Source: Octopus vulgaris
Lineage: Eukaryota
Assembly: GCA_951406725.2 (NCBI GenBank)
Contig: OX597837.1
Coordinates: 1 to 64,000, forward strand
DNA: 64,000 nt
Direction of reading: 5' to 3'
Each line of letters starts with the position of its first letter. Positions within the stretch are counted from its first letter, which is position 1. The notes under the pieces are model-generated. The model had not been told where the DNA came from. It was given only the letters and a program-made list of their open reading frames with translations, and searched no databases. This document shows, piece after piece, positions 5,776 to 63,631 of the stretch. Made by a program: the position numbers and the translations under genes.

Positions 5776-8700
5776 TCATGAAGGCTTTCTAGCAGCTGCT
5801 ATTTGGTGCATGAGAGAGTTCGATGCAGCTGCCCTCATCTGCCCCTCCTGCCGTGAAGTTGGTTCATCTGGGACACCTGACAGGAAGAGATCCAGCTTCA
5901 TTTTAAAGACATCTGTATCCACCCCATGCAGGTCTCTCAGGTTCTTCGGGAGGATATTGAAGAGCTGTGGGCCTCGGAAGCCCAGGCTATCACAGAATCT
6001 TGTCCTACATCTTGATGGCAAGTTTGGAGTCCTAGGCACCACGCAGTGGCGCCCAGTTCTGGCATTTGCGTAACTCTCGATGCCAAAGTTCAGGACACTT
6101 CCCTCCAGGATCTTCCAGATGTATATTATGGCATATCTTTCCCGCCTACGCTCCAGGGAATATAATTTTAATTTCCTGAGTCTTTCCCAGTAGCTTACAT
6201 TCTGCATAGAGGCTATCTTCTTCGTGTAGCTACGTTGGATCGCCTCGAGCTCTGTGATCAACTTGACACTGGATGGTGACCATAACTGAGAGCAGTAGTC
6301 AAAGTGGCTTAGGACAAGTGTCCTCCAGAGGACCATCATGGTTTCTTGTTCTCTTGTTCTAAAGGTTCTGAGGATCCATCCGGCCAGTCGTCTACATTTC
6401 ATTGCCAATTTAGCAACATGTACACGAAAGGTCGCGTCATCACTCATGTAAATACCTAGGTCACGCACTGATTGTGCCTCTGGGATTGCTATTCCTCCGG
6501 GTCCAGTGTATTCATTGGGTATTGCATTTAGTTTTGCATGCTGATAGTATAGAGCTTGAAACTTTTCAGCATTGAACTGCATGCTATTCTTTTCGGCCCA
6601 CTTGTATATTTTGTCTAGCTCACATTGCAGGTGTTTAGTGTCCTCAGGGTTCTGTATTGCCTGTGAAACTTTTGTATCATCTGCATAACTTGTGATCGTG
6701 GCTCTCTGCGTGGCTGAGGGCATGTCTGAGAGGGCCATTATGAACAGTAGTGGTCCCAGAACAGTGCCCTGCGGAACACCGCTCACTATTTGCGTGTTAA
6801 TGGAAGTGGCCCCATTGGCCACTACCACCTGACTTCTATCTTTCAGAAAGTCATGAAGCCATTCTCCCAGTTTTCCAACTATGTTGAGATCACGCAGTTT
6901 GTGACATATCATTCCATGATCGACTTTATCAAAGGCCTTTGCAAAGTCGAGATATATCACTTCCACATTTGAGTGGTTGAGCAGCCGTTTCAGCACCCAG
7001 TCATAGTGTTGTAGGAGCTGAGTTAAACAGCTTCTCCCTGGTCGGAAACCATGTTGGGTGTCGGGCAGCAAGTCATTTTCTTCAAGGAAGGTGATCAGCT
7101 TCCTTCTGACTATTCGTTCCATGACCTTGCTGATGTGTGAGGTCAGAGAGATAGGTCTATAGTTCTTGGCTTCCGCTCTGCTACCTCCTTTATGAATGGG
7201 GCATATTTTACCTTCCTTCAGTTTTCTTGGAAGTTTGCCAGCTGCAAGGAAGCTCTGAAAGAGGAACTGCAGTGGTCTTGCTAGGACTCTCTTACATGCT
7301 TTTAGGAGGATTGCCGGGAATCCATCGGGGCCAGTAGCTGAGTCTGTTTTCATTTCATCTATAGCCTTGATTACATCGTCTTCCTTTATATCGATGTAAT
7401 CTATCGTCGCCGCCTCTGATTTTATATCTGCAGTGGTAAAAAAGTCAGTTGGATTGGTGATTTGGAGATGCCCAAGGGGTGGAGTGAAAACACTCTTGAA
7501 TTGCTCATTCAGTATTTCACTTACCCTCATTGGTTTTCCTGTAAGTGTGCCATCCTTTTCGAGGAGTGGCCCTATTCTACAGTGCACCGTAGCTGTTTCT
7601 TTGGCATACCTGTAGAAAGCTCTGGGGTTAGATTTTATGTTGTCTATAGCCCAGGCTTCTTTGTCTGCTCTTTCCTTTTCATGGGAGAGTTTCAGACATT
7701 TTTCGATTTCCAACAGTTTTATTTTTAGGCGGGACTTTTCACTGCTTTCAATCTGTTTGTTTAGGCGATTTGAAAATTTTGTACGCCGTCTCATTAGAAT
7801 TTTCCTCTCTCTGGGGATTTTGTTCTTGTGTACAGTGGCCTTTCTCTCTGGGACATATTTGTAGCATATGGCTTGCATTACAGACATGAATTGTTGAAGT
7901 TTCACGTCGATGTCTGGCGAGGAGAGACATTTAGGCCAGTTTTGTTTGAGGATCTCTTTCTCAATTTGTTTCCAGTTTGCCTTATGGTAGTTCAAGCTGG
8001 AAAGATTCTGGGGTTTCTTGTAGGCTGCATGTCCGTGCTCTCTTTTGGCCCGTACATGGTCAGCTCTATCATGTTGTGATCCGAGAGTAGTGTCGGTGTC
8101 ACTTTCACATTATGGATGAGATCCATGTCATTTGTGAAGCAGAGATCCAGTGTGTTACCTGCCCTGGTTGGTTGGAGTATTACCTGCTCCATGTACAGGG
8201 TGTTGATGAGGTTCAGGAGGGACCTCGCCTGTCCTCGTTCACATCTTGTCATTCCTGGGAGAGAAAGGCCCTCGGGCCATCTGACATTTGGCAGATTGAA
8301 GTCTCCCATAAGAAGTACACTTATGTGTTGTTCTAATGTGGTTAGAACTTCTTCTATTTTTATAAGGCAGTCTTCAAACTTGCCCACATGGCTTGGGGCA
8401 TCTGGAGGGCGGTATGTAGCACACACAACTACATCAAGTTGCCTAATATGTACAATTAGTGTGTCACACACCGAGTTTGAGTATGACAAGAGGACCTGGG
8501 GTGTGAGGTCCTCACGGATGTACATAGCAACACCTCCATGACTCCTTTCTTTCCTGTCGGTCCGTAGTACAGCATACTGTGGTATGTGTAACTCCGCATC
8601 TGCTATATCCGGTTTCAGGTGCGTTTCCGTTAGTGCTATGCATAAGGCTTGATTGCATGCAACAAAATCTCTCAGGAACGGGATTTTTGTCCTGTTACTG

Positions 8701-8888
8701 AGTGTTTGCAGTCCTCTGATGTTCAGTAGGAGCATCGAGGTGAGGTGTACGTTGTTGCCGGTGGTGTCCATCCTGGGTCTGTTTGCTGTGGTGGTGGTCT
8801 GGTATATAGTGGGTAGTCCCACCTGCGGGCTTGGGTTTGATGAAGCCAGGTCAGCTGCTGTACAATCTTTTGTGCCATGCACAAAAAA
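5776..8888 (-). pseudogene. LINE1 ORF2: APE endonuclease plus reverse transcriptase (one frameshift near 8000-8020)
   Basis: APE motifs LLNIRGL, ALTETHL, YRPP, MGDFNLP, TLDLCF, SDH; RT motifs YRPISLTS, QHGFR, YLDFAKAFD, GVPQGTVLGP, YADD; CR1-type C-terminus LYSLERRRER. Confidence 0.95.
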
Positions 8889-9728
8889 GATTGTTGCTCA
8901 GCAGCTGCCCTTTCGACAACATCATGTTGGTGGTTTGTGGCACGCACAACATCTGCGTACCTCCGCTTTGGGGCAAGTGGTGCGTGGTCCATCTCTTTTC
9001 CTTGTGTTGATGGTTTGTCCATCTGCCTCGTGTCTCTGTGGCAGGGTCCCCGATGTGCAAAGCGGCAGCCTGCACCTTCCTTTCCATGCCAGCAGGAACC
9101 TCTCAGGTAGAACCTACACACCCGTGTGCGCTGTCCGTTTCCATCTTTTGCGGTTCCACTTCTATTCCTGGTTTTTTCACCCTTTGGTCCTGCTTGAGCT
9201 TTTCCTTTAGCTCTACCAGCCCTTCTTTTAGTTCTTCCTCCTCCTCTACCTCTTCACCGGGTTCTCCGTCTCCATGGCCTTTGCTGCCGGTTGGAGAACT
9301 TGCACCTGGGTTCACTTCCCGGGCAGGTTTCTCATTCAAAACCTCCTCCCGGGCATCCACCAGGTGGGGGTGACTTCTTTCATCGTCTCCATTCTTGTCA
9401 TCTTTGCCTCGCTCGTTCTCAAAGATGGCATCAAGTGCGCCAATGTGCGACCGTACAAGCGCATATGAGCGCACGAATTCCCGTCTCCATTCTTGTCATC
9501 TTTGCCTCGCTCGTTCTCAAAGATGACATCAAGTGCGCCAATGTGCGACCGTACAAGCGCATATGAGCGCACGAATTCCCGTCTCTTTCGCTCCATCTGA
9601 GCCGCTGTCCTCTTGTAGCCTCTGCTCTTCAGCGCAGCCGCAATCACCTCGCTAGGGCTATCTCCGCCGGCGCACTCCCATGCTTGTACGAATAAATCCA
9701 GCTCGTCAGGTCTCCATGCTCTGGACAT
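8723..9728 (-). pseudogene. LINE1 ORF1: trihelix Myb/SANT-like domain, acidic linker, CCCH zinc finger (disrupted by a 98-nt duplication and one frameshift)
   Basis: MSRAWRPDELDLFVQAW...IAAALKSRGYKRTAAQMERKRREF; CRFYLRGSCWHGKEGAGCRFAH. Confidence 0.8.
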
Positions 9729-11644: not shown

Positions 11645-11677
11645 GGAGACCAAATGTGTACGTACGCCGCTATATGT

Positions 11678-12400
11678 ATATATAAAAGATCAAAACAAAA
11701 AATAGATCAAGAATGTAACAGGTGACAATAAAACATTCGGATAGTAGGTGATACAAAAAAGGACAGGAAATGGGAAGGATGGGTTATTATGAGCTTTCAC
11801 TCTCCCTCCTCATTTACTTCACCCTGTCCCTTTCCTTTGTTCTCTCTTTCTCGTCTCTTCCTAATTTTTCAATCCCTCTATCCACTACCTCTCTCCTCTC
11901 CTTCTACGTGACCGGTGTTCGGCGAAGCCTGACCTTTCTTTCTTGGTTCGATTACCATCCGTACTGCATCTCTTGTATTCCTTCCCATGACATTCATCTA
12001 CTATGTTCCTGCCGTAAGGCTTCACTTACCCACACGCCAGCTGAATTTAATTCGTCCTGAGTCGAAAAACATCTGTTGTTAATGTCCTGTTGTTTATATT
12101 TGTAACTGTGTACCATTTCTCCGTTTTTTTCCCTTTCGTACTTGTTTCCGTATACATTCGCTTGCTTTCTTCCAAAGAATCTAGTGCTCTTAGCTTAGAT
12201 TTCCTTGGGGCTGGCCAGATTAGAGCAGTCTCGAGATTAACTGGCCGAAACTGCAAAGAAAATCTGCTTCTCGACCGAATATTGAAAGCTCCGAATGTCA
12301 CGTCTTTGTTTTTTCCTGTCCTTTTTTGTATCACCTACTGTCCGAATGTTTTATTGTCGCCTGTTACATTCTTGTTCCATTTTTTGTTTTGATTATATAT
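11678..12400 (+). mobile_element. Non-autonomous element with ~95-bp inverted termini (Penelope-like); related copies near 45400-45550 and 55445-55720
   Basis: 11685-11770 is the reverse complement of 12310-12395; the internal GGCTGGCCAGATT..GAGATTAA..GCCGAAA block recurs on the minus strand at 55550-55592. Confidence 0.6.
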
Positions 12401-12405
12401 ATACA

Positions 12406-13986: not shown

Positions 13987-14915
<929 letters not shown>

Positions 14916-16527: not shown

Positions 16528-17352
16528 TCATACATATTCACACACGTGTACAAATGAATCTATATACACGTCTATATAGGCACAGGAAAAAATGCGGGAT
16601 AGAAAAGTACAGAAAAAATTATTATGTGTGAAAATATAAAAATATATGAAATAATAAAAGGTATAATGAGATAAAAAAACTTTTTGGGACATAATATAGA
16701 AAGCAGGTTTTATGTTTTCTTTGGGGGACCAAAAACGTAACAAAAATTTTGTCACATGTGGGCATGATCCGAAAAGTTCTGTCCTTGAGTTTAGACATGT
16801 AGTAGGGTCTAAGCTGCTTTTCCAGATGTCGCATAGACCGCACTTTCCGCTGCCGTTGGTGTAGGGCTTACATTTGGCCAAAATCTTCCAATGGATGTTA
16901 TAATCGACACCTTTTTCTTTTAAAGACCAAATATGATTAGATAATTTTGTCGCTTTTCTTTTGTTCCAGTGCCTAAAACTCAAGGTGTGGTTATTGAATC
17001 TGGCCTTGAAATTACCCTCTGTAAGGCCCACGTATTTCTTCGTCGAAACGGTGTCTTTAGTGGTTATAGAGTCCACGGTAGCTTCATAGATGATGGTCTC
17101 GGATATGCAAGCTCCATTTAGCGGGCACAATTTTTTATTCCTGCATGAACAGCTGTTTTCTTGTTGTGGTTTTTGTGTGTTATGTGTGATTATATTTTTA
17201 AAATTGGTAGTTGAACTAAAACTAATTTTTAAATTGTGTTTATTGAAGAGTTTCCTATAAGTATGGTTAACTGGAAAATGTCTATCTATCAGTGTTAAGA
17301 AATATTTACCTATATTGAAGGTCACCTCGGGTGAGTAAGGGGGTGTAAACAT
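16528..17352 (-). pseudogene. Penelope linker plus GIY-YIG endonuclease fragment
   Basis: (W)FTPPYS, CSCRNKKLCPLNGAC, IIYEA...YVGLTEGNFKARFNNH..SF, HIWSLK, CGLC, LNSRTELFGSCPH. Confidence 0.9.
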
Positions 17353-17715
17353 TTTTAAAGCGTTGCCCCAGTTTATAATAAGGCTTTAAAATATAGTGGT
17401 TTTAGCGAAAAAATAAAATATACACCTGCTACTAGCCCAACAGTAAAGAAGAGGAAAAATAGAAATACGAAGATCATCTGGTTTACACCCCCTTACTCAC
17501 CCGAGGTGACCTTTAATATAGGTAAATATTTCTTAACACTGATAGATAGACATTTTCCAGTTAACCATACTTATAGGAAACTCTTCAATAAACACAATTT
17601 AAAAATTAGTTTTATCTTGACTATTGAGTAATTGTAACATTATTTTATAGATGAATTTCCTCTATTTACATAATATTGAGGTCTCTTTCTTTCTTTTGTT
17701 ATCTTACCGTTTTTA

Positions 17716-22510: not shown

Positions 22511-25500
22511 TCAAGTAGTGAGTTCTTGTTGGGTGAGTTGTATCCAGTTTTGTTCAAGTAGTGAGTTCTTGTTGGGTGGGTTGTATCCAATTATGGGTGG
22601 CTTATCTGGTATTCTTTGAAGGAATCTATCCAGACTCTGTTTAAAGTTGATGGGATCCTTTTCCTCTTTGATCTCCCTCGGGACAATGTTAAATAGGGCA
22701 GGGCCTGTTGAGGAAAAGAAATTATGTTGCAGTGTACATGTATGTTGTGATCTTGAATTGGGCAGGGGACGTATAGCCCGTGGTCCAAGTCTTGGATGAA
22801 CTTTGAAGCTAATGTTTAGGTCGTTTGGGCAAAATTGGCGGTATATTTTCCACATCGTACAAATGATGTACCGCTCACGGCGACGCTGGAGGGAGTAAAG
22901 TTTCAAGGCTTTAAGGCGATCCCAATAATCGAGAACAGCCATGCCTTCAATTTGTTTAGTGAGTGCCCTCTGGGGTGACTCAATTCTGGAGATGTTTTGT
23001 CTTGTGTGAGGAGACCACAGTGGGCAGCAGTATTCAAGGTGTGGCCGTACAAAGGAGGAAAAAAGTGGTATGATGACACCTTGTTCTCTGGACCGGAAAG
23101 TTCTTAAGATCCAGGAACTCATCCTACGAGCTATATCGACCTTCTTGTTGATGTGTGCACTCCAACTGAGATCGTCATCAACAATTACACCCAGGTCTCT
23201 GATATTGTTAGAAGCTGTGAGCGGTTCCCCTGAAGGAAGAGAGTATGGTTGTTTTAGTGAGGAATTTCTTCCAAAATGCATCAGCTCAAATTTTCCCTCA
23301 TTCAGTTGCATTTTGTTTCTGTCTGCCCATTGACTCACAGCATATAGATCAGACTGGAGTTGAGTTCGGTCTGCTTCTTCATTGACGATTTGCTGGAGCT
23401 TAGTGTCATCAGCAAATATTTTCACTTTGCAGTAATGTACGACACTGGAAAGGTCGTTTACGTAAATTATGAAGAGTAGCGGACCCAAAACAGTTCCCTG
23501 GGGAACACCGCTGGTGACTTTTGCTGGGTTTGAGTGGACTCCATCAACTACATGTTGTGTTCTATTCGCCAGGAAATACTGAATCCAGTGTAGAACTTTT
23601 CCACGGATTCCAACGTTTGCCAATTTTGAGAGTAGGATGTTATGGTCTACCCTGTCGAACGTTTTACTGAAGTCAAGATATATGACGTCAGAGTTCGAAC
23701 CTGTTCCCAAAGCTTTGAGTACATCTTCAATGTGGTGTAAGAGCTGTGTTAGACAGTCCCTGCCACAGCGAAAGCCATGCTGATTTGCATTTAGGAGTTT
23801 GTGGGTCTCCAGGAAGTCAGCTATCCTTGATCTTAACACTCTTTCAAACACTTTAATGATGTGGGAGGTGAGTGAAATTGGGCGATAGTTGACTGCGAGG
23901 GATCTGTTTCCCTGTTTGAAAACCGGGATGACCGACTGGGATAGAAACTGTTTCGGTATATAACCTGCGTCTAACGGATTTCTCCAGAGGTTGGTCAGAG
24001 GGACTGCAAGTTGGTATCTACATTCCTTCAGGAGACTAGCGGGAAGTCTATCAGGGCCTACAGCAGAGTAATGTTTGACCTCATTTATTGCTGCTACGAT
24101 GTCGGTGGCAGTGAAGGTTATGTCTGATATTTGGTGTTGGGAGTCAACTTCGTTCGTTTCCCTTACGCCAATATCAGTGGGAACACTAAAGACAGAGCAG
24201 TATTGTTTCTGCAGTATTTCTGCCATTTCTTTAGCATCGTGTTGGGGAATGCCGTTATCATCAATCAATGGCCCAATGTGTGAGACAGTGGTTCTATGCT
24301 TATTTGCATAAGAATAGAACACTTTTGGGTTCTGTTTGATGTTTTTGATTACCCATTGTTCCTCCACAGCTCTTTGATTTTCAATGGAGGTTTTCATGTT
24401 GGTCTGCAGATGAAGTTCTTCCAGCTCTAGTCTTTTCATTGTTGTTGAATGTGGATGTTGTGTGTGGGAATATTTTAATTGGTTGATTTTTTTGTTGAGT
24501 CTTTTGATGCGCCTGATGAGTGTTTTTTTCTTTTTAGGGAGCCGGTTTCTGTTTGTGTTAGTAGATTTCTTGGGAGCGGGTTTAGAGCATGTATAGGTGA
24601 CAATGTTTTCAAAGTGCTGCCACGCGGTCTCAATATGAGAGGAATTGAGAGTAAAAGACCAGTCGATGGAAGACAGATCCTTTCTGATTGTTCCCCAGTC
24701 CGCTTTGTGGAAGTTTATGTTGTCAAATGGGTGCCATGAAGTGGGATTGGCTGGTTTGGTTTTTATATGTCGGGAATTAAGATTGCAGAGTACCATGTCG
24801 TGGTCTGAGAGGAGAGTTTTTTCGACTGAAATACTGTGAACGTAGCTAGAGTGATTGGTCAATACCAGACCCAAGATCGTTTTATTCTGTCTCGTTGGTT
24901 CAAGCACTAGCTGAGTCAGGAAATACTCATCCATCAGATTAAAGAGCAGTTCTGCTGCTGCTCTATCTGATGTAGAGCCCTTGCCTAACTTCAGAGTATT
25001 TGTGGGCCAGTTCACATGAGGGAGGTTAAAATCACCCATCACTAGTATGTTTCCAGAGTGGTACTTCCGAAGGAAGGACTTGACTTTGCTAAGGCACTCT
25101 TCAAAGTACTTTAGAGGTGTCTGGGGAGGCCTGTAAAGACCAACAATGGTTATGTCCTTGGCTTTGTTGTATAGTGATACCGATTCGATTCACAGTAGCC
25201 ATTGGAAAATATGTCCTTGGCATCAAGTGAAAAGGAGTCATGGATAAAGATGGCTGTCCCTCCCTTATTTCGGTCTGTGCGATCCGCACGAACAATGGTG
25301 AAATCTTTTATTTTCACCTCTGCGTCCATATGGGTGTTGTTCAGGTGAGTCTCGGTAAGGATAAAGAAAGGGAAGCAATGTGCCATTTCGGCAAGCCAAC
25401 TCTCTATATATGGGATCTTCCATTTTTGGGCAATAATTGATGGGTTGATGCCACGTACATTTAACAGGAATGTCGAGGTAAGGGAAGTTGGTAATGGGTG

Positions 25501-25596
25501 AGTGGTCCTTGTGATTTGCATAGATGGTTGGTGATAGCTCGCTGGATCTCCTGGCTTAGGTCGGCCTTCATATTTTCTAGGTATGTCAGTAAAAAC
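22511..25596 (-). pseudogene. LINE2 ORF2: APE plus RT (lesions in APE near 25080-25190)
   Basis: LLNVRGI, LTETHL, MGDFNLP, SDH; YRPISLTS, QHGFR, YLDFSKTFD, GVPQGTVLGP, FADD, LYSLQRRRER. Confidence 0.95.
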
Positions 25597-26664
25597 GAGT
25601 TACTTGTTTGGTTTGCCACTTGGTCAGAGGATACATATTTCATGTTGGCGTTATTTGGTGTTTTTTCATGGTTCTGTCTACGTTGTTTGATTGTAGGAGG
25701 GGAAACGTGGTTGTATTTTGTTCTTGTTGTTGTCCTAGATTTCCTCTGTTCCTGTTTATATTTATTCTGTGATCGTTTTGTGCCCTTCAGATGGTGGTGG
25801 TTGCATTCTGGGTTCAGGCACATCCTTTGTGAGACAGAAGTTTGGTACAGTTTAGGATGGAATAAGGTGCATCCATTGCCTTTTATGCATCCGTATTTAG
25901 GATCAGAACCATAGATTCTGTATTTAGGACAGTATTTGGGGTGGAGGTGGGGGCAATTTTTTCCTGTGCCCATAACAAGTCTACGACATAAGGTCGGATG
26001 GGAAAAAGCACAGCGTCCATTGTTGTTTGTGCCGCTGGGGCCAAATCTACAATTGCCTTTAGAATAGTAACGGCAGGGGGTTATATTTGGTTGTAGTAGT
26101 GGTTTTTCTATTCTGGCAGTTAGAAGCAGCTTGTTGATTTTGTGATGGTGGGTTCTGGCTTGCCAGGATGTGGTCAAATCTGCAGCTGCCTTGAGAGTAG
26201 TAATGGCAGATAGTTTTACGTGGATGTAGTAGTGATTTTCCTATTGTGGCAGTAGTAGTAGTGGAGAGTTGTTTTTGTTGTAGCAGCATTGGAACTTGAC
26301 TAGTGGTAGTATTAGAGTGTTGTTGACTTGGTTCATCATGTGCTGTTGTCAATGGAAGTAGGTCAGTTGATTGTTGCTGTTGAAGTGACCCCTGACCTGT
26401 TGGAATTTGGTCATTTGGTATACTGGATTCGTTGGCAAGAATGGCTTTTAGTGTAGCCATGTGCGCGTGAAAAATAGGGAATATCCTAACAATTTCTTTT
26501 ATTTTATTTTCTATCTGTTTTACAGATCTGTGAAAGGATTTTTTCGTTAAATCCTCTGTTATTTTACTGTAAACATTAGCTTCGTTGTGATGGATGAACC
26601 AAGCGTTAATCATTGCAGTAATTTCATTTTCAACCCAGCGGCGTGTTTGAAAATTATTGGCCAT
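25461..26664 (-). pseudogene. LINE2 ORF1: trihelix Myb/SANT-like domain, Q/T-rich linker, multiple CCCH fingers (one frameshift near 26090-26170)
   Basis: RRWVENEITAMINAW...YSKITEDLTKKSFHRSVKQIENKIKEI; CRYYSKGNCRFG..GRCAFSH, CPKYRIYG..GCIKGNGCTLFH, CLNPECNHHH. Confidence 0.82.
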
Positions 26665-27205
26665 ATTCAGTGGGGTAGTGTTGTGTAATATATATATGTA
26701 TGTATGTGTATGCGTGTATATGTACACCAGTTATTGATGGCTTGGAAAGTTTGTGTCGATATACTCGGAAATTCGTGGCTTGTGTGTGTGAGAGTTCAGT
26801 GTAATTGGTACAATCTAATTAGTACAATCAGGATGAGCGGTGTCTTTAATACAGATCAAGAAAAAATACTCAACCATTTACAAAAAAAAAAACTGAGTTG
26901 ATCGAACAAAGGAATTACCATTGTCGGGACCACTGGGGATCCATCCCTACCCACAGAGCGTCATTGGAGGAGTATTTTTTGTCACTTGCCCGTGACGAAA
27001 AATACTCCTCTAGTACTGTTGTGACTTCGTCTTCAGAACTCATTTTTTCCGTCCAAATGATTTTGAAAACTGCAGAATAAATGATAATTAGATGGGGAAA
27101 TGTCCGGCGAATATGGTGGGTGGGGCATCGTTCCCCATTCAAACTGCTCCAGCCTTTAGAATGTTATCCTCGCTGTATGTGGCCGAGCATTATTTATGGG
27201 ATGAC

Positions 27206-27248
<43 letters not shown>

Positions 27249-27312
27249 ATTTGTTGAGTACATAAACAGCTTGGCTGCTTGTTTCTGTGGAGATTGTCAA
27301 AATGATGTAGAC

Positions 27313-27355
27313 GCCTCTGATGAGAACCCGATAAGGTCCGAAAACCGGTTAAGGT
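27313..27355 (+). ncRNA. Type I hammerhead-like motif
   Basis: GCCT-CTGATGA-GAACC cgataa GGTCC-GAAA-ACCGGT-TA-AGGT; intact core, palindromic stem III AACCGGTT. Confidence 0.7.
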
Positions 27356-27436
27356 TGTTAATTTTTTCAGTCTGTGGAGAAATGGCTAAAATTTGCCATG
27401 TTTATAATTATACCATATGTTACATATATTTATATT

Positions 27437-29069: not shown

Positions 29070-29294
29070 AGACAAATGCATTCACACACGTGTATATAAT
29101 ATATATATATATAAATATACAAATATATATATATATATATAAGACAAATGCATGCACAAACGTGTGTATAATATATATATATACAAATGCATGCACAAAC
29201 GTGTGTATAATATATATATATATATGAATCTACAAATATATATTTACATGTGTGTATATATATATACACATGTATACACAAATATATATTTACA

Positions 29295-29456
29295 TTTTTT
29301 CTCACCTTGTTTCTCTTTGTTTTTTCTGTGTACCTTTCTGTAGAAGAGCGTAGGCTCGAAACGTAAAAGACTTTTTATATTCCTGAGCGTTATACTAATA
29401 CATCTGTTTGTTTTGTACACCACCTGTCTTCGTCTTTTGTTTTTTTCGTAAACTCT

Positions 29457-29512: not shown

Positions 29513-29796
29513 GTATACATATATATGTATATATATATATATATATATTATTGAAGTAGATAAATGAATTATCTTATAACGGATAATTCAAATGATGATA
29601 ACCGATACATGGGTAGCAAAAATCACAACACAAAAAGCACGGTTGAAGTTACGACCATGGGGCATAAAATCCGTGCCTTAATGCGGAAATCTGAAGTTTT
29701 ATATATTAAGTGTAGGAAGAAATGGAGCTGAACGAGGATTTAACAAAATTCCTTTTAAATCTTCATTCAGCTCCATTTCTTCCTACACTTAATATA

Positions 29797-29832
<36 letters not shown>

Positions 29833-30104
29833 TGTATGTATGTATGTATGTATGTATGTATGTATGTATGTATGTATGTATTTATGTATGTATGTATGTA
29901 TATATATATATATATATAGGAGGAGTTTACGAAAAAAACAAAAGACGAAGACAGGTGGTGTACAAAACAAACAGATGTATTAGTATAACGCTCAGGAATA
30001 TAAAACGTCTTTTACGTTTCGAGCCTACGCTCTTCTACAGAAAGGTACACAGAAAAAACAAGGAGAAAAAAAGGAGAGAAAAAAACGTAAATATATATTT
30101 GTGT

Positions 30105-30147
<43 letters not shown>

Positions 30148-42576: not shown

Positions 42577-42924
42577 CACCTTGTTACCTCTTCACCTTGT
42601 TACCTCCCCTACTTTCCTTCTCCTGTTTGACCCCTCTGTCCGCCAATAGTCGCCATGATAGATCGTTAGCCACTACACACTTTTTCTCTCTCTCCTTGTT
42701 TCTGTCCTTGTTTTTTCTGTGTACCTTTCTGTAGAAGAGCGTAGGCTTGAAACGTAAAAGACTTTTTTTATTCCCGAGCGTTAAACTAATTAGACCTGTT
42801 TGTTTTGTACACCACCTGCCTTCGTCTTTTGTTTTTTCGTAAACTTTCCCTATATATATATATATATATATACGTTTATATATTTGTTGTGCAAGATTTT
42901 TTATGTGAAGTCGTGTATTGAAAC

Positions 42925-43678
42925 AGATATTGTTATATTTCGGAATGGTCATTTTGCCAGTTTAGCCAATAAAAACACACGCACTATATATTTGGTGTTA
43001 TTTTGCTTCAATCAACAACATAGAAATTAAAATATTGTCCACACATAGAACAGAGGCAACAATCAGACAAATTACAGAAGCTACACACATAATAGAAAAT
43101 AAACCTTTCCTGAATAGGAAACTAGAATGGAACACTAGCACACACCACAACATATGACGGTAGAGGATCCTGAAAACATAATAAATACCCAGATAAATAA
43201 ACAAATAGAAATAAATAACTATATAAGTTTTTATTTATTTATTATTATTATTACTAGTATTGTTGTTATACATACATACATACATACAAGCATATGTAAT
43301 GATAATAACAAGTGGATGTAAACACATGAACAAAATAAGAATAAACAAAAACAACAACAACAAAAACAAATTACATGAACGTATATAAACAGAAGATACA
43401 AATATTACAGGCATCCCCCCCACACTAAATAAACATAGACGCACATAGAGATATAAGCATGCGCAAATGAAGACATACAATAGAAATACAAAATGGCTGA
43501 CGGTTAGTAAGGAGAGACACAAATAATGATGCGGTCACAGGAGTGTGACGAAAGAACTCTGGCCAAAATAAGATTAAGATTAATGTAAAAAATAAATAAC
43601 ACTGAAGCAAAATAATACCAAATATATAGTACGTGTGTTTTTATTGGCTAAACTGGCAAAATGATCATTCCGAAATAT

Positions 43679-43686
<8 letters not shown>
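42925..43686 (+). mobile_element. Penelope-like 3' fragment with ~85-bp inverted termini
   Basis: 42926-43010 is the reverse complement of 43602-43686; peptide KILSTHRTEATIRQITEATHIIENKPFLNRKLEW resembles a GIY-YIG C-terminus. Confidence 0.7.
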
Positions 43687-43733
<47 letters not shown>

Positions 43734-43882
43734 CATTCCAAAATATAACAATATATATATATATATGATCATTCCGAAATATAACAATATATATATATAT
43801 ATATATATATGTAGATCCCGGGTTGAGTCGGGGTTAACCACAGTAAATAAGGTACTCAATACATGGCAGAGTAAATTAATTT

Positions 43883-44001
43883 ATTTTATAGAAGGAGCTT
43901 CTACAGGACTAGAACTGTTTCATTCAAATGAAATCATCAGGAAGCTTTCTGATGATTTCATTTGAATGAAACAGTTCTAGTCCTGTAGAAGCTCCTTCTA
44001 T

Positions 44002-44006
<5 letters not shown>
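43883..44006. ncRNA. Palindromic head-to-head hammerhead-like pair (copy 1)
   Basis: AGCTTY-CTGATGA-TTTCATTTGAAT-GAAA-CAG ttctagtc CTG-TA-GAAGCT on both strands, centred on AAGCTT at 43942-43947. Confidence 0.7.
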
Positions 44007-44047
<41 letters not shown>

Positions 44048-44301
44048 TTCAGCAAAATTTAGATTCAGATGAATATGGTACTTAAGTTAGATGCAGCAGA
44101 ACTTTGTATGGTGTTATCCATTTAAATCCATGGGGTTTAATCAAAATAAGCAACAAGAATATCTCCGGTAATTTGGTAAGATAAGCTCTACTACCTCAAT
44201 GTTCTTAAAATTCAAATCAACATCTTTGTCTATATATCTACCTTCTCTATAATGTTATCAATTAATATGAAAAATATGTATTAATGGGAAACCTCTATAA
44301 A

Positions 44302-44386
44302 TGGCTGATGATTGCTCAACATTTAAAAAACTGTTGTAATATTTACAATATTTAATAAAATGATGTAGCGTGAAACGATCGTATCA
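44302..44386 (+). ncRNA. Hammerhead-like motif with extended stem II (copy at 45049-45133)
   Basis: TGG-CTGATGA-TTGCT...AGCGT-GAAA-CGATCG-TA-TCA; palindromic stem III ACGATCGT. Confidence 0.6.
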
Positions 44387-44418
44387 AATTACCGGAGATA
44401 TTCTTGTTGCTTATTTTG

Positions 44419-44452
<34 letters not shown>

Positions 44453-44597
44453 CATTCCAAAATATAACAATATATATATATATATGATCATTCCGAAATA
44501 TAACAATATATATATATATATATATATGTAGATCCCGGGTTGAGTCGGGGTTAACCACAGTAAATAAGGTACTCAATACATGACAGAGTAAATTAAT

Positions 44598-44720
44598 TTA
44601 TTTTATAGAAGGAGCTTCTACAGGACTAGAACTGTTTCATTCAAATGAAATCATCAGGAAGCTTTCTGATGATTTCATTTGAATGAAACAGTTCTAGTCC
44701 TGTAGAAGCTCCTTCTATAA

Positions 44721-44725
<5 letters not shown>
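44598..44725. ncRNA. Palindromic head-to-head hammerhead-like pair (copy 2)
   Basis: Same sequence as copy 1. Confidence 0.7.
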
Positions 44726-44795
<70 letters not shown>

Positions 44796-45165
44796 TTCAG
44801 CAAAATTTAGATTCAGATGAATATGGTACTTAAGTTAGATGCAGCAGAACTTTGTATGGTGTTATCCATTTAAATCCATGGGGTTTCATCAAAATAAGCA
44901 ACAAGAATATCTCGGTAATTTGGTAAGATAAGCTCTACTACCTCAATGTTCTTAAAATTCAAATCAACATCTTTGTCTATATATCTACCTTCTCTATAAT
45001 GTTATCAATTAATATGAAAAATATGTATTAATGGGAAACCTCTATAAATGGCTGATGATTGCTCAACATTTAAAAAACTGTTGTAATATTTACAATATTT
45101 AATAAAATGATGTAGCGTGAAACGATCGTATCAAATTACCGGAGATATTCTTGTTGCTTATTTTG

Positions 45166-45217
<52 letters not shown>

Positions 45218-54134: not shown

Positions 54135-54558
54135 TATGATTTCGCTTAGGCATTGGCGTGTATGATCGTAAGATTGTGGTTTCGATTCCTGGAGCGGGTG
54201 ATGTGTTGTGTTCTCGAGCAAAACACTCTACTTCACGTTGCTCCAGTCCACTCAGATGGCAAAAAGGAGTTAATTCCATCCAGATAGGGAATATATACGC
54301 CACGGAAAATCGGGAAACCGGCCCTTATGACTCGGGAAGGAACTTTACTTAAGCATAAGGATATTAATACCCATAATCTTACAGCTTCTTAGAAGTCATT
54401 AATATGCATATATGTATATATAAATAGGAAATACTGGCACAACAAAGTACCAAGTTTTGCTGGAAATAGCAGTCGATAACCAATAACCTTGTTGTGCCAC
54501 TATTTCCGGTTTACAATTTTACATTTCCTGTGCTTTATTTAGCTAGAAAATAATATTT

Positions 54559-55376
54559 GGATCTTTTCCTTTTGAACGGCAGATGTCAACACAATTTCTA
54601 GTTAACTGAACACTTTTAAACTTCGTATACTGGTAGAATGTGTTTATAAAACATCATTTTCTCTTGGTTTTATTGAGAAAATTCTATAGTTTGTAAGATA
54701 TTTCGTCTGAAAATCCGAGCATTTCGGCAATTTTAACCAATACATTACCTCCATTTAGGTAAACAACATTTGCTGCGTCTAAAACCGAGACAAAATCCTG
54801 CAGCTAACCCTCCCCTCTCCCTAACCCTAATTTTTTTTTTCTTAATTGCTAAATTAATGTAATTGTTACGCGTGTAAAAATAACTAAAGCAATGGAAAAT
54901 AATTTAAAAAATTAACATACAAAATAATTCTATAATTTTATACACACGCTTTCCGTACGTATACGAAAGCGTGTGTTACGGAAAGCGTGTATATAAAATT
55001 ATAAAATTATTTTGTATGTTAATTTTTAAAATTATTTTCCATTGCTTTCGTTTTTTTTTTTTACACGCGTAACAATGAAATTAATTTAACAATTAAGAAA
55101 AAAAAATTTAGGGTTAGGGTTAGGGCTGGGGGGTGGGGTTAGGGTCAGTTACAGGATTTTGTCTCAGTTTTAGACGCAGCAAATGATTCTAGCTCAAAAG
55201 AAAGCATAGGATTGGTTAAAATTCGAAAAATTAAACTACGTTAAACAAACAAATTACAATTTTCTCAAGAAAGCCAAGAGAAAAAAAATGTTTTATTTTG
55301 ACACATTCTACCAGTATACGAAGTTTTAAAGTGTTTAGTTAACTAGAAATGTCTGCCGTTCAAAAGGAAAAGATCC
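54559..55376. mobile_element. Fold-back MITE, Merlin-like
   Basis: Near-complete 818-bp imperfect palindrome, termini GGATCTTTTCCTTTTGAACGGCAG, perfect 8-bp TSD TAATATTT. Confidence 0.85.
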
Positions 55377-55406
55377 TAATATTTTATTGCAATAATAATA
55401 ATAATG

Positions 55407-62058: not shown

Positions 62059-62360
62059 AGAGTAAAATCTATTTGCCAACGCAAAGTGGCAGTCCTGATT
62101 AGAACGATGTTACTACTTTTTTTAGCCCCAGGAAAAAATCTTTTCCAGCTGGCTATCGACGCATAACTTCGTCCTTATACTACGAACAAGGGAGCTAATG
62201 TCTCCACTCAGCCTTAAACGGTACCTGCGAACCAATGGTTTCTGGACGCAGCTGTGCGTCGATAGCCAGCTGGAAAAGGTGTTTTTCTGGGACTAAAAAT
62301 GGTAGTAACATCGTCCTAATCAGGACTGCCACTTTACGTTGGCAAATAGACATTACTCTG
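62059..62360. mobile_element. Fold-back element with ~105-bp inverted arms
   Basis: 62059-62163 is the approximate reverse complement of 62255-62359. Confidence 0.8.
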
Positions 62361-63060: not shown

Positions 63061-63631
63061 CAATGTTTTTCAACCCCACCTTTTTTTTTTTTACATATGG
63101 ACTCCTTCAGTTCCTGTTTTGCTCAGATGGACCCTCAAAGCCATTCGATGTATAACAAAGTCACATATCTCTATAATTAAATATAATTAGGAAGTGTATA
63201 AAAAACTATTGCTTATGGCTATATTAATGTGGCTGTCCTCTAAGAGATGACGATATTGTTACTTCACCGCAGGAAAATATCTCTTCCAGCTGGTTTATTT
63301 ATTGCAAGTGGGAGATAACTCGAGCCACCCTAGTTCTGTGCGAAAAACACACTGAATAAACCAGCTGGAGGAGATATCTTCCTGGGGTTAAATGGCAGTA
63401 TCGTCATCTCTTAGAGGATAGCCACATTAAAGTGTCCATAAGCAATACTTTTTTTTTGCTTCGTGCACAGCTTCTATCTCGAACAGAGATTTTCTAACGG
63501 ACTAGTTTCCGAGTTATAAAAAACTAAAAATATTTTGTATGTTGTTTAACCGACTTATTGCAGATAACTTTTAACAACGAACCCTTACATGGAACCTGAA
63601 GGGCCATATGGACCCCGGTAGAGACTCACTG
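63061..63631. mobile_element. hAT-like MITE containing a nested fold-back element (63207-63447)
   Basis: CAATGTTTTTCAACC...GGTAGAGACTCACTG termini, degenerate 8-bp TSD GTTTAAAC/GCTTAAAG, ATGGACCC subterminal repeats. Confidence 0.65.

Follow-up and report, generated by a model that had tools for sequence, protein, structure and literature searches.

How a complete hammerhead ribozyme motif came to lie on each strand of one short palindrome in the Octopus vulgaris genome, and whether the two motifs act as a pair, are the questions raised by this locus. It lies in a 64,000-nucleotide stretch of DNA, analysed as a whole and called the window here, which is rich in TA and CA microsatellites and in LINE remnants. 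Reverse-complement comparison agreed with the original prediction of a 124-bp palindrome about AAGCTT with one central mismatch: 43883-44006 agrees with its reverse complement in all but one pair (43941 G / 43948 T), and the arms (62 bp each) meet without a spacer, with the midpoint at 43944/43945. Its parts are:

43883-43944, minus strand: left arm, the element end in antisense orientation
43945-44006, plus strand: right arm, the element end, terminating at the short end
43938-43951, both strands: central self-complementary 14-mer, containing AAGCTT and the sole G.T mismatch

We favour, with somewhat more confidence than doubt, the explanation that the hammerhead-bearing end of one repeat is present in two 5'-truncated copies, which were joined head to head in (TA)n, probably in a single insertion by Penelope-like machinery through two cDNAs, and that the pair probably has no function as such. 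We are confident of the class of the structure, a head-to-head Penelope-type stump; the two-cDNA route is the less certain part of the explanation.

The stems and the core could be located on each strand, which bears out the earlier claim of a complete type I motif in both polarities:

43943-43993, plus strand: type I hammerhead motif with U10.1-U11.1 and a GUA triplet, predicted cut after 43987
43896-43946, minus strand: mirror copy of the type I hammerhead motif, with the cut predicted after 43902

On the plus strand, the 5' strand of stem I (43943-43948) is followed by CUGAUGA (43949-43955), the stem II region with U10.1 and U11.1 (43956-43967), GAAA (43968-43971), stem III (43971-43986; 4 bp with an 8-nt loop), the GUA triplet (43985-43987) and the 3' strand of stem I (43988-43993). 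The core elements CUGANGA, GAAA and U16.1-H17 were present on both strands, surrounded by an open stem I of 6 bp, a stem II of 3 bp and a stem III of 4 bp. Stem I closes with a U.G wobble on the plus strand; on the minus strand it consists of 6 Watson-Crick pairs, and 4 more are possible beyond a 2-nt bulge. The two motifs overlap by 4 nt, within stem I. In stem II, the closing pair G10.1-C11.1, which is a consensus and not absolute, is absent, and U-U stands in its place.

A relaxed descriptor permitting a closing mismatch in stem II, chosen after the motif had been seen, gave four matches within the window, all in the palindrome and its duplicate, and none on either strand when the 59,425 unmasked bases were dinucleotide-shuffled 200 times. 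Rfam returned no hammerhead at E ≤ 10 for 43400-44010, RF00163 included, and one truncated RF00008 match for the isolated half (12.5 bits, E 2.1; gathering threshold 48.5). The latter, together with the sub-gathering microRNA-type hairpins returned by the searches of window, region and half, was rejected as chance. Elsewhere in the window, a lone hammerhead-like motif with a G-C closed stem II, a palindromic stem III and an apparently decayed cleavage site is present on the plus strand at 27309-27358.

The palindrome belongs to a longer insertion between two TA tracts, and the insertion is present twice:

43811-44006, no strand assigned: whole insertion, 196 bp, a long inverted arm and a short direct arm between two (TA)n tracts
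43811-43882, minus strand: one-sided extension (tail), 72 bp, prolonging the long arm past the palindrome
43790-43810, no strand assigned: (TA)n tract, left flank
44007-44045, no strand assigned: (TA)n tract, right flank, masking any target-site duplication
44598-44725, no strand assigned: second palindrome copy with 64-bp arms and the identical mismatch (124-bp equivalent 44600-44723)
43702-45196, no strand assigned: tandem duplication with units 43702-44449 and 44421-45196, breakpoints in (TA)n

The second palindrome copy, missed by the original prediction, lies 717 bp from the first. Each tandem unit contains the palindrome insertion and a second, unrelated hammerhead insertion. The units are ~99.5% identical: two substitutions and an indel of 1 nt separate them, the short arm is slightly longer in one, and the TA tracts differ in length. 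They could represent a biological duplication or an uncollapsed haplotype. In the favoured explanation, the 717-747 bp duplication is a later event than the insertion. The 717-bp tandem as a retrozyme dimer was rejected, the unit being a patchwork of three families with its breakpoints in TA. The window showed no tandem array of monomers from a single family in which every monomer has a type I hammerhead, the arrangement of non-LTR retrozymes.

The plan of the insertion, with a long arm, a short arm and TA flanks, recurs at 42927-43686, 44138-44422, 29700-29798 and 11675-12405. Several of these neighbours have features of their own. The second hammerhead family occupies 44046-44422 (duplicate 44792-45169), with CUGAUGA at 44305, a 60-nt stem II region, a palindromic minimal stem III, a GUA triplet and a predicted cut after 44383; the letters of its family restore G10.1-C11.1. 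Its inverted arm starts at most 2 nt from the predicted cut, possibly a trace of a cleaved RNA template, and two listed joints agree with an arm start at the cut, a position towards which the end of the arm may bias them. A third head-to-head insertion (42875-43686) contains hammerhead-like pieces in unusual order (43495-43575), and short copies of its terminal 25 bp, flanked by TA tracts, are found again at 43731-43790. The nearly spacerless 99-bp palindrome at 29700-29798 (89%) has a 150-bp one-sided extension in TA (29550-29798), and the whole is nested between inverted arms at 29272-29455 and 29923-30108; a hammerhead core was not found in the 29700-29798 palindrome.

Public sequencing runs were used for the family as a whole. 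Part of the stretch was contained in 20 of the 24 runs listed, the best of them containing 0.54 of 56 sampled words, and four runs were aligned to the stretch, all as contigs. In the runs presumed to be RNA, 0.21-0.32 of the words were present. None of the listed contig pieces crossed the centre of the 43883-44006 palindrome, and the junction is confirmed in the assembly only. This absence, the word content of the best runs and the near-identity of a tandem duplicate that could be an uncollapsed haplotype would fit an assembly or library fold-back chimera. We consider such a chimera very unlikely, given the asymmetric tail, the clean TA boundaries, a mismatch common to both copies, the four further insertions in the window that are laid out alike, and the family's other head-to-head joints, which come from independent runs.

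The palindrome's family is a very abundant repeat in all four aligned runs. Summed depth over the arms, which is not a copy number, was 0.8-2.6 million per run, compared with 6-112 for single listed contigs, and family coverage extended to at least 43824 on the long-arm side in each of the four. Five of the 40 listed places (57 variable in total) fell within the motif, and these reduce to N7, two bases in loop II and the base that closes stem I (43948); none of the 40 affects the core, the stems or the U-U pair. At 43948, the Watson-Crick C is the family majority (57-85% of depth; non-C 15-43%). The allele at 43929/43960, common to both arms, is a minority allele, the majority differing in 68-92% of depth.

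Among the 15 listed of 49 joints, four were other head-to-head (antisense-sense) junctions of the family, three formed through 3-4 shared letters and one through 16 inserted letters, and in all four the complete hammerhead was retained on neither arm. A single contig per run supports each of them, and its shorter side spans 25-28 letters; since repeats can mimic such joints, they are indicative only. Among the 24 listed of 539 loose ends, run X5 has 14 contigs that break off in TA at the mirror position of 44010 and 3 that do so at that of 44007. These TA-flanked family ends match the stop of the short arm, which lies at 44006 and, in the duplicate, at 44008. One X5 contig departs from the stretch after 43951.

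These data also bear on an insertion at TA of a DNA transposon, either a palindromic MITE or a foldback element, in which the hammerhead is present by chance or capture. The perfect terminal symmetry over 62 bp and the TA flanks are as expected of such an element, which should have symmetric, fixed ends common to its copies. However, the family sequence continues for ~60-70 bp on one side only and the junctions vary between loci, while the listed differences within the motif are confined to N7, loop II and the closing base of stem I. We therefore regard this origin as very unlikely as well. Other inverted repeats in the window include 270-bp arms (97%) flanking a 390-bp TA tract at 13987-14915, 134-bp arms (99%) flanking 130 bp at 17217-17614, and older, MITE- or foldback-like self-palindromes of ~77% identity at 54552-55383, 62059-62359 and 63200-63454.

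The Penelope-type assignment of the insertion rests on published layouts. In the sections available of PMC8557442, insertions of EN+ Penelope-like elements are described as having an inverted 5'-truncated copy, a one-sided tail and (TA)n targets. The octopus insertion shows all three: an inverted 5'-truncated copy placed head to head, a tail at one end and a (TA)n target, within which a target-site duplication is indiscernible. It resembles Pen2a_Av, Pen2_Av and Pen3a, as far as the excerpts of PMC3846280 and PMC8557442 describe them, in the inverted 5'-truncated end, the extension at one end, a (TA)n tract that hides the duplication and a hammerhead in the end repeat. Its junctional palindromic overlap measures 14 nt, compared with 15 bp in Pen2a_Av in the same extract of PMC3846280. 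In contrast to those insertions, the octopus copies are reduced to ~60-135 bp with no ORF left. An argument against the assignment is the extension of 72 bp, which exceeds the 30-40 bp tail given in the part of PMC8557442 at hand.

Candidates for the parent element are a Penelope with coding capacity and a non-coding, retrozyme-like rider of the kind treated in the accessible portion of bioRxiv 10.64898/2026.07.22.740005. Six-frame translation gave no usable ORF in the insertion or its neighbourhood, and no RT or GIY-YIG ORF linked to the palindrome's family was found in the window. GIY-YIG was absent from the 19 of 68 listed window ORFs scanned with Pfam, and the RTs elsewhere were of LINE type. 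Motif searches of the PMC8557442 supplement for the palindrome's family or its neighbour gave no sequence match. With neither a linked ORF nor a match in the supplement, the parent may therefore be a repeat of the non-coding, retrozyme-like sort. The minus strand carries LINE-type elements with APE endonuclease and RT at 22511-26730 and 5776-8897; the former has an 892-aa open frame, with Myb/SANT-like and CCCH matches upstream.

How the two copies were joined is a separate matter. In the route we favour, an endonuclease would nick both strands of the TA tract, and one cDNA would be primed at each nick, starting at the long end of the family in one case and at the short end in the other. The two cDNAs would halt just 5' of the ribozyme core, where the self-complementary strand of stem I would let their 3' ends anneal over 6-14 nt, and fill-in would then fix a spacerless palindrome. 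Purified Penelope protein extends both target strands, and two RNA start sites define the tail, according to the available text of PMC11167929. Energy predictions point to the central 14-mer (43938-43951) as the likely annealing site of both arms. At the centre, the predicted energy of a DNA hairpin was 0 to -0.3 kcal/mol, and that of a self-dimer was -10.6 kcal/mol for the 14-mer and -5.8 kcal/mol for the 6-mer. The centre thus forms no DNA hairpin yet self-dimerises, and two annealing cDNAs therefore fit somewhat better than fold-back, although hairpins too weak to be predicted by nearest-neighbour methods can still serve a polymerase as primers.

Fold-back within one molecule is possible, if rather doubtful. 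A cDNA (or an antisense template) would end in the central 14-mer, form a 5-bp stem with one G.T pair and copy itself, leaving the mismatch as a relic of the primer. The spacerless centre agrees with such an event, as do arms that share all loop and tail alleles, including the minority one at 43929/43960. The non-C fraction at 43948 (15-43%) and the X5 contig that leaves after 43951 hint that the 14-mer is native upstream sequence. In addition, Penelope-like head-to-head junctions show palindromes and a 15-bp overlap in the portion of PMC3846280 available, where self-priming is argued and palindromes at inverted junctions are interpreted in that way. On the other hand, a hairpin was predicted for none of the candidate DNA 3' ends, and the other junctions are offset, with 3-4 nt of microhomology, and not hairpin-centred. 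Fold-back alone also does not account for a copied arm that stops at the family-wide short end, for which two-ended priming is simpler. Fold-back during Penelope replication, primed by the palindromic stem I, had been the origin originally predicted, and it is one already published in the same portion of PMC3846280. What stands of it is an inverted insertion of Penelope type with the palindromic strand of stem I at its centre; priming by fold-back is weakened by the missing hairpin and by the family-wide end of the short arm.

As to the joining of two cDNAs, a further possibility, though less likely than not, is that 14 nt of native self-complementary sequence include the stem I strand and act as a built-in annealing site and hot spot for the joining of cDNAs from opposite nicks, with the G.T mismatch inherited. 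The mismatch may be native upstream sequence or, alternatively, stem from a point change; the hints of a native origin, each of them weak, include the 4 additional pairs that the minus-strand letters allow in stem I beyond a 2-nt bulge.

The remaining question is whether the two motifs work together. The complete palindrome was predicted to fold into a rod of -99.2 kcal/mol, more stable than the hammerhead fold by 69.5-73.1 kcal/mol, in agreement with the proposal that a full transcript folds into a silencing rod. Once ~8 nt or more of the mirror arm precede stem I, the predicted hammerhead fraction falls by orders of magnitude. The arms stand head to head, and therefore the antisense arm emerges first in any read-through transcript; from either side, the 60-bp rod would form ahead of the ribozyme. 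If transcribed, this 60-bp duplex would be a likely ADAR or Dicer substrate. These folding predictions make it unlikely that the pair is functional as a unit. Judged by sequence, the pairing of ribozymes looks incidental, because the motifs mirror one sequence and the four other listed family junctions have no complete ribozyme; the same observations weaken the analogy with viroid-like paired ribozymes drawn earlier.

Viroid and ambivirus pairs consist of two separately evolved ribozymes on a circular RNA that is copied from RNA to RNA. The octopus locus is similar in having one ribozyme motif per polarity and a rod that conceals both. It differs in that a single sequence is mirrored in chromosomal DNA, and two distinct ribozymes were not found. 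Transcription from within the centre, or strand-specific refolding, might in principle free cleaved RNAs of both polarities in a viroid-like manner, and both motifs are indeed complete, with a stem II module that is likely active by analogy. We nevertheless hold a functional ambisense pair to be the least probable of the readings considered: more than ~8 nt of mirror arm 5' of stem I abolishes most of the predicted hammerhead fold, the antisense arm is always transcribed first, the core is missing from the other listed family junctions, and there is neither a second independent ribozyme sequence nor a sign of a circular monomer.

The isolated half, in contrast to the pair, is probably a ribozyme, and by folding predictions a weak one. 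Nearest-neighbour folding, which ignores Mg2+ and tertiary contacts, placed 0.4% (minus) and 0.01-0.08% (plus) of the ensemble of the isolated motif in the hammerhead fold. These shares are low because a competing hairpin captures the core GA in the predicted minimum-energy fold. The family letter in loop II raised the predicted share tenfold, to ~4%.

The weak stem II closed by U-U had been raised as a caveat. This caveat loses force, since U-U is the majority state of the family among the listed differences and a published natural variant. Decay of one copy was rejected as its source, as no other letter occurs at 10.1 or 11.1 among the 40 listed of 57 positions. U10.1-U11.1 is a tolerated variant of natural hammerheads in the extract of PMC3088659, and the available part of PMC7229834 reports it for the axolotl HHR_Amex2 (~60,000 copies), the monomer of which was cleaved by 22% in 1 h. 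Like the HHR_Amex2 retrozyme and other U10.1-U11.1 hammerheads, the octopus motif is natural, occurs in high copy and has a weak stem II with U-U at its base. It differs from HHR_Amex2 in sequence and organism, and its family has no tandem monomer array in the window.

A degenerate search with the core and stem II gave eight loci (four metagenomic, four viral), of which four were distinct; the exact 28-nt query gave no match in metagenome contigs. Three of the four distinct matches form type III hammerheads, with a stem III of 5-6 bp and a stem I of 7 bp, compared with 7-14 of 2000 flank shuffles:

L001:2001-2026, L002:209-234 and L003:2001-2026, metagenome/viral contigs: type III hammerheads with the same U-U stem II

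No hammerhead closure was found for the fourth, L004, and L005-L008 are identical to L003. The U-U motifs of L001-L004, too, score under the Rfam gathering threshold. The eight matches were rejected as members of the palindrome's family and serve only as independent examples of the stem II module, which, by analogy with them, is likely active.

Dual hammerhead motifs on opposite strands, ~100-700 bp apart, have been described in metazoan Penelope-like elements (PLEs) by Cervera and De la Pena 2014 (in the part of PMC4209133 available). The octopus family is alike in carrying a type I motif in a dispersed, high-copy repeat. According to the same part of PMC4209133, it differs in three respects: the motifs overlap by 4 nt in stem I instead of being spaced ~100-700 bp apart, stem III is a 4-bp monomer-type helix and not minimal, and stem II is short with U-U, not long with G10.1-C11.1. 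Our literature search found no publication on opposite-strand hammerheads overlapping in stem I, nor, judged by the listed entries, on twin priming in PLE inversions. The overlap in stem I is a limiting case of the described layout, and as such known in kind.

The locus itself is ordinary, another of the truncated, inverted insertions for which descriptions go back to at least 2013. It provides a data point on how head-to-head inversions arise in Penelope-like elements. The palindromic junction, the diagnostic mismatch and the family-wide short end can separate self-priming from two-ended priming once the upstream sequence of the family is known. If the native 14-mer is indeed a hot spot, junction counts in one family would decide between self-priming and two-ended priming in Penelope inversions. 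For a simple cleavage assay, moreover, the family offers an animal hammerhead that is abundant and combines a U-U stem II with a stem III of monomer type.
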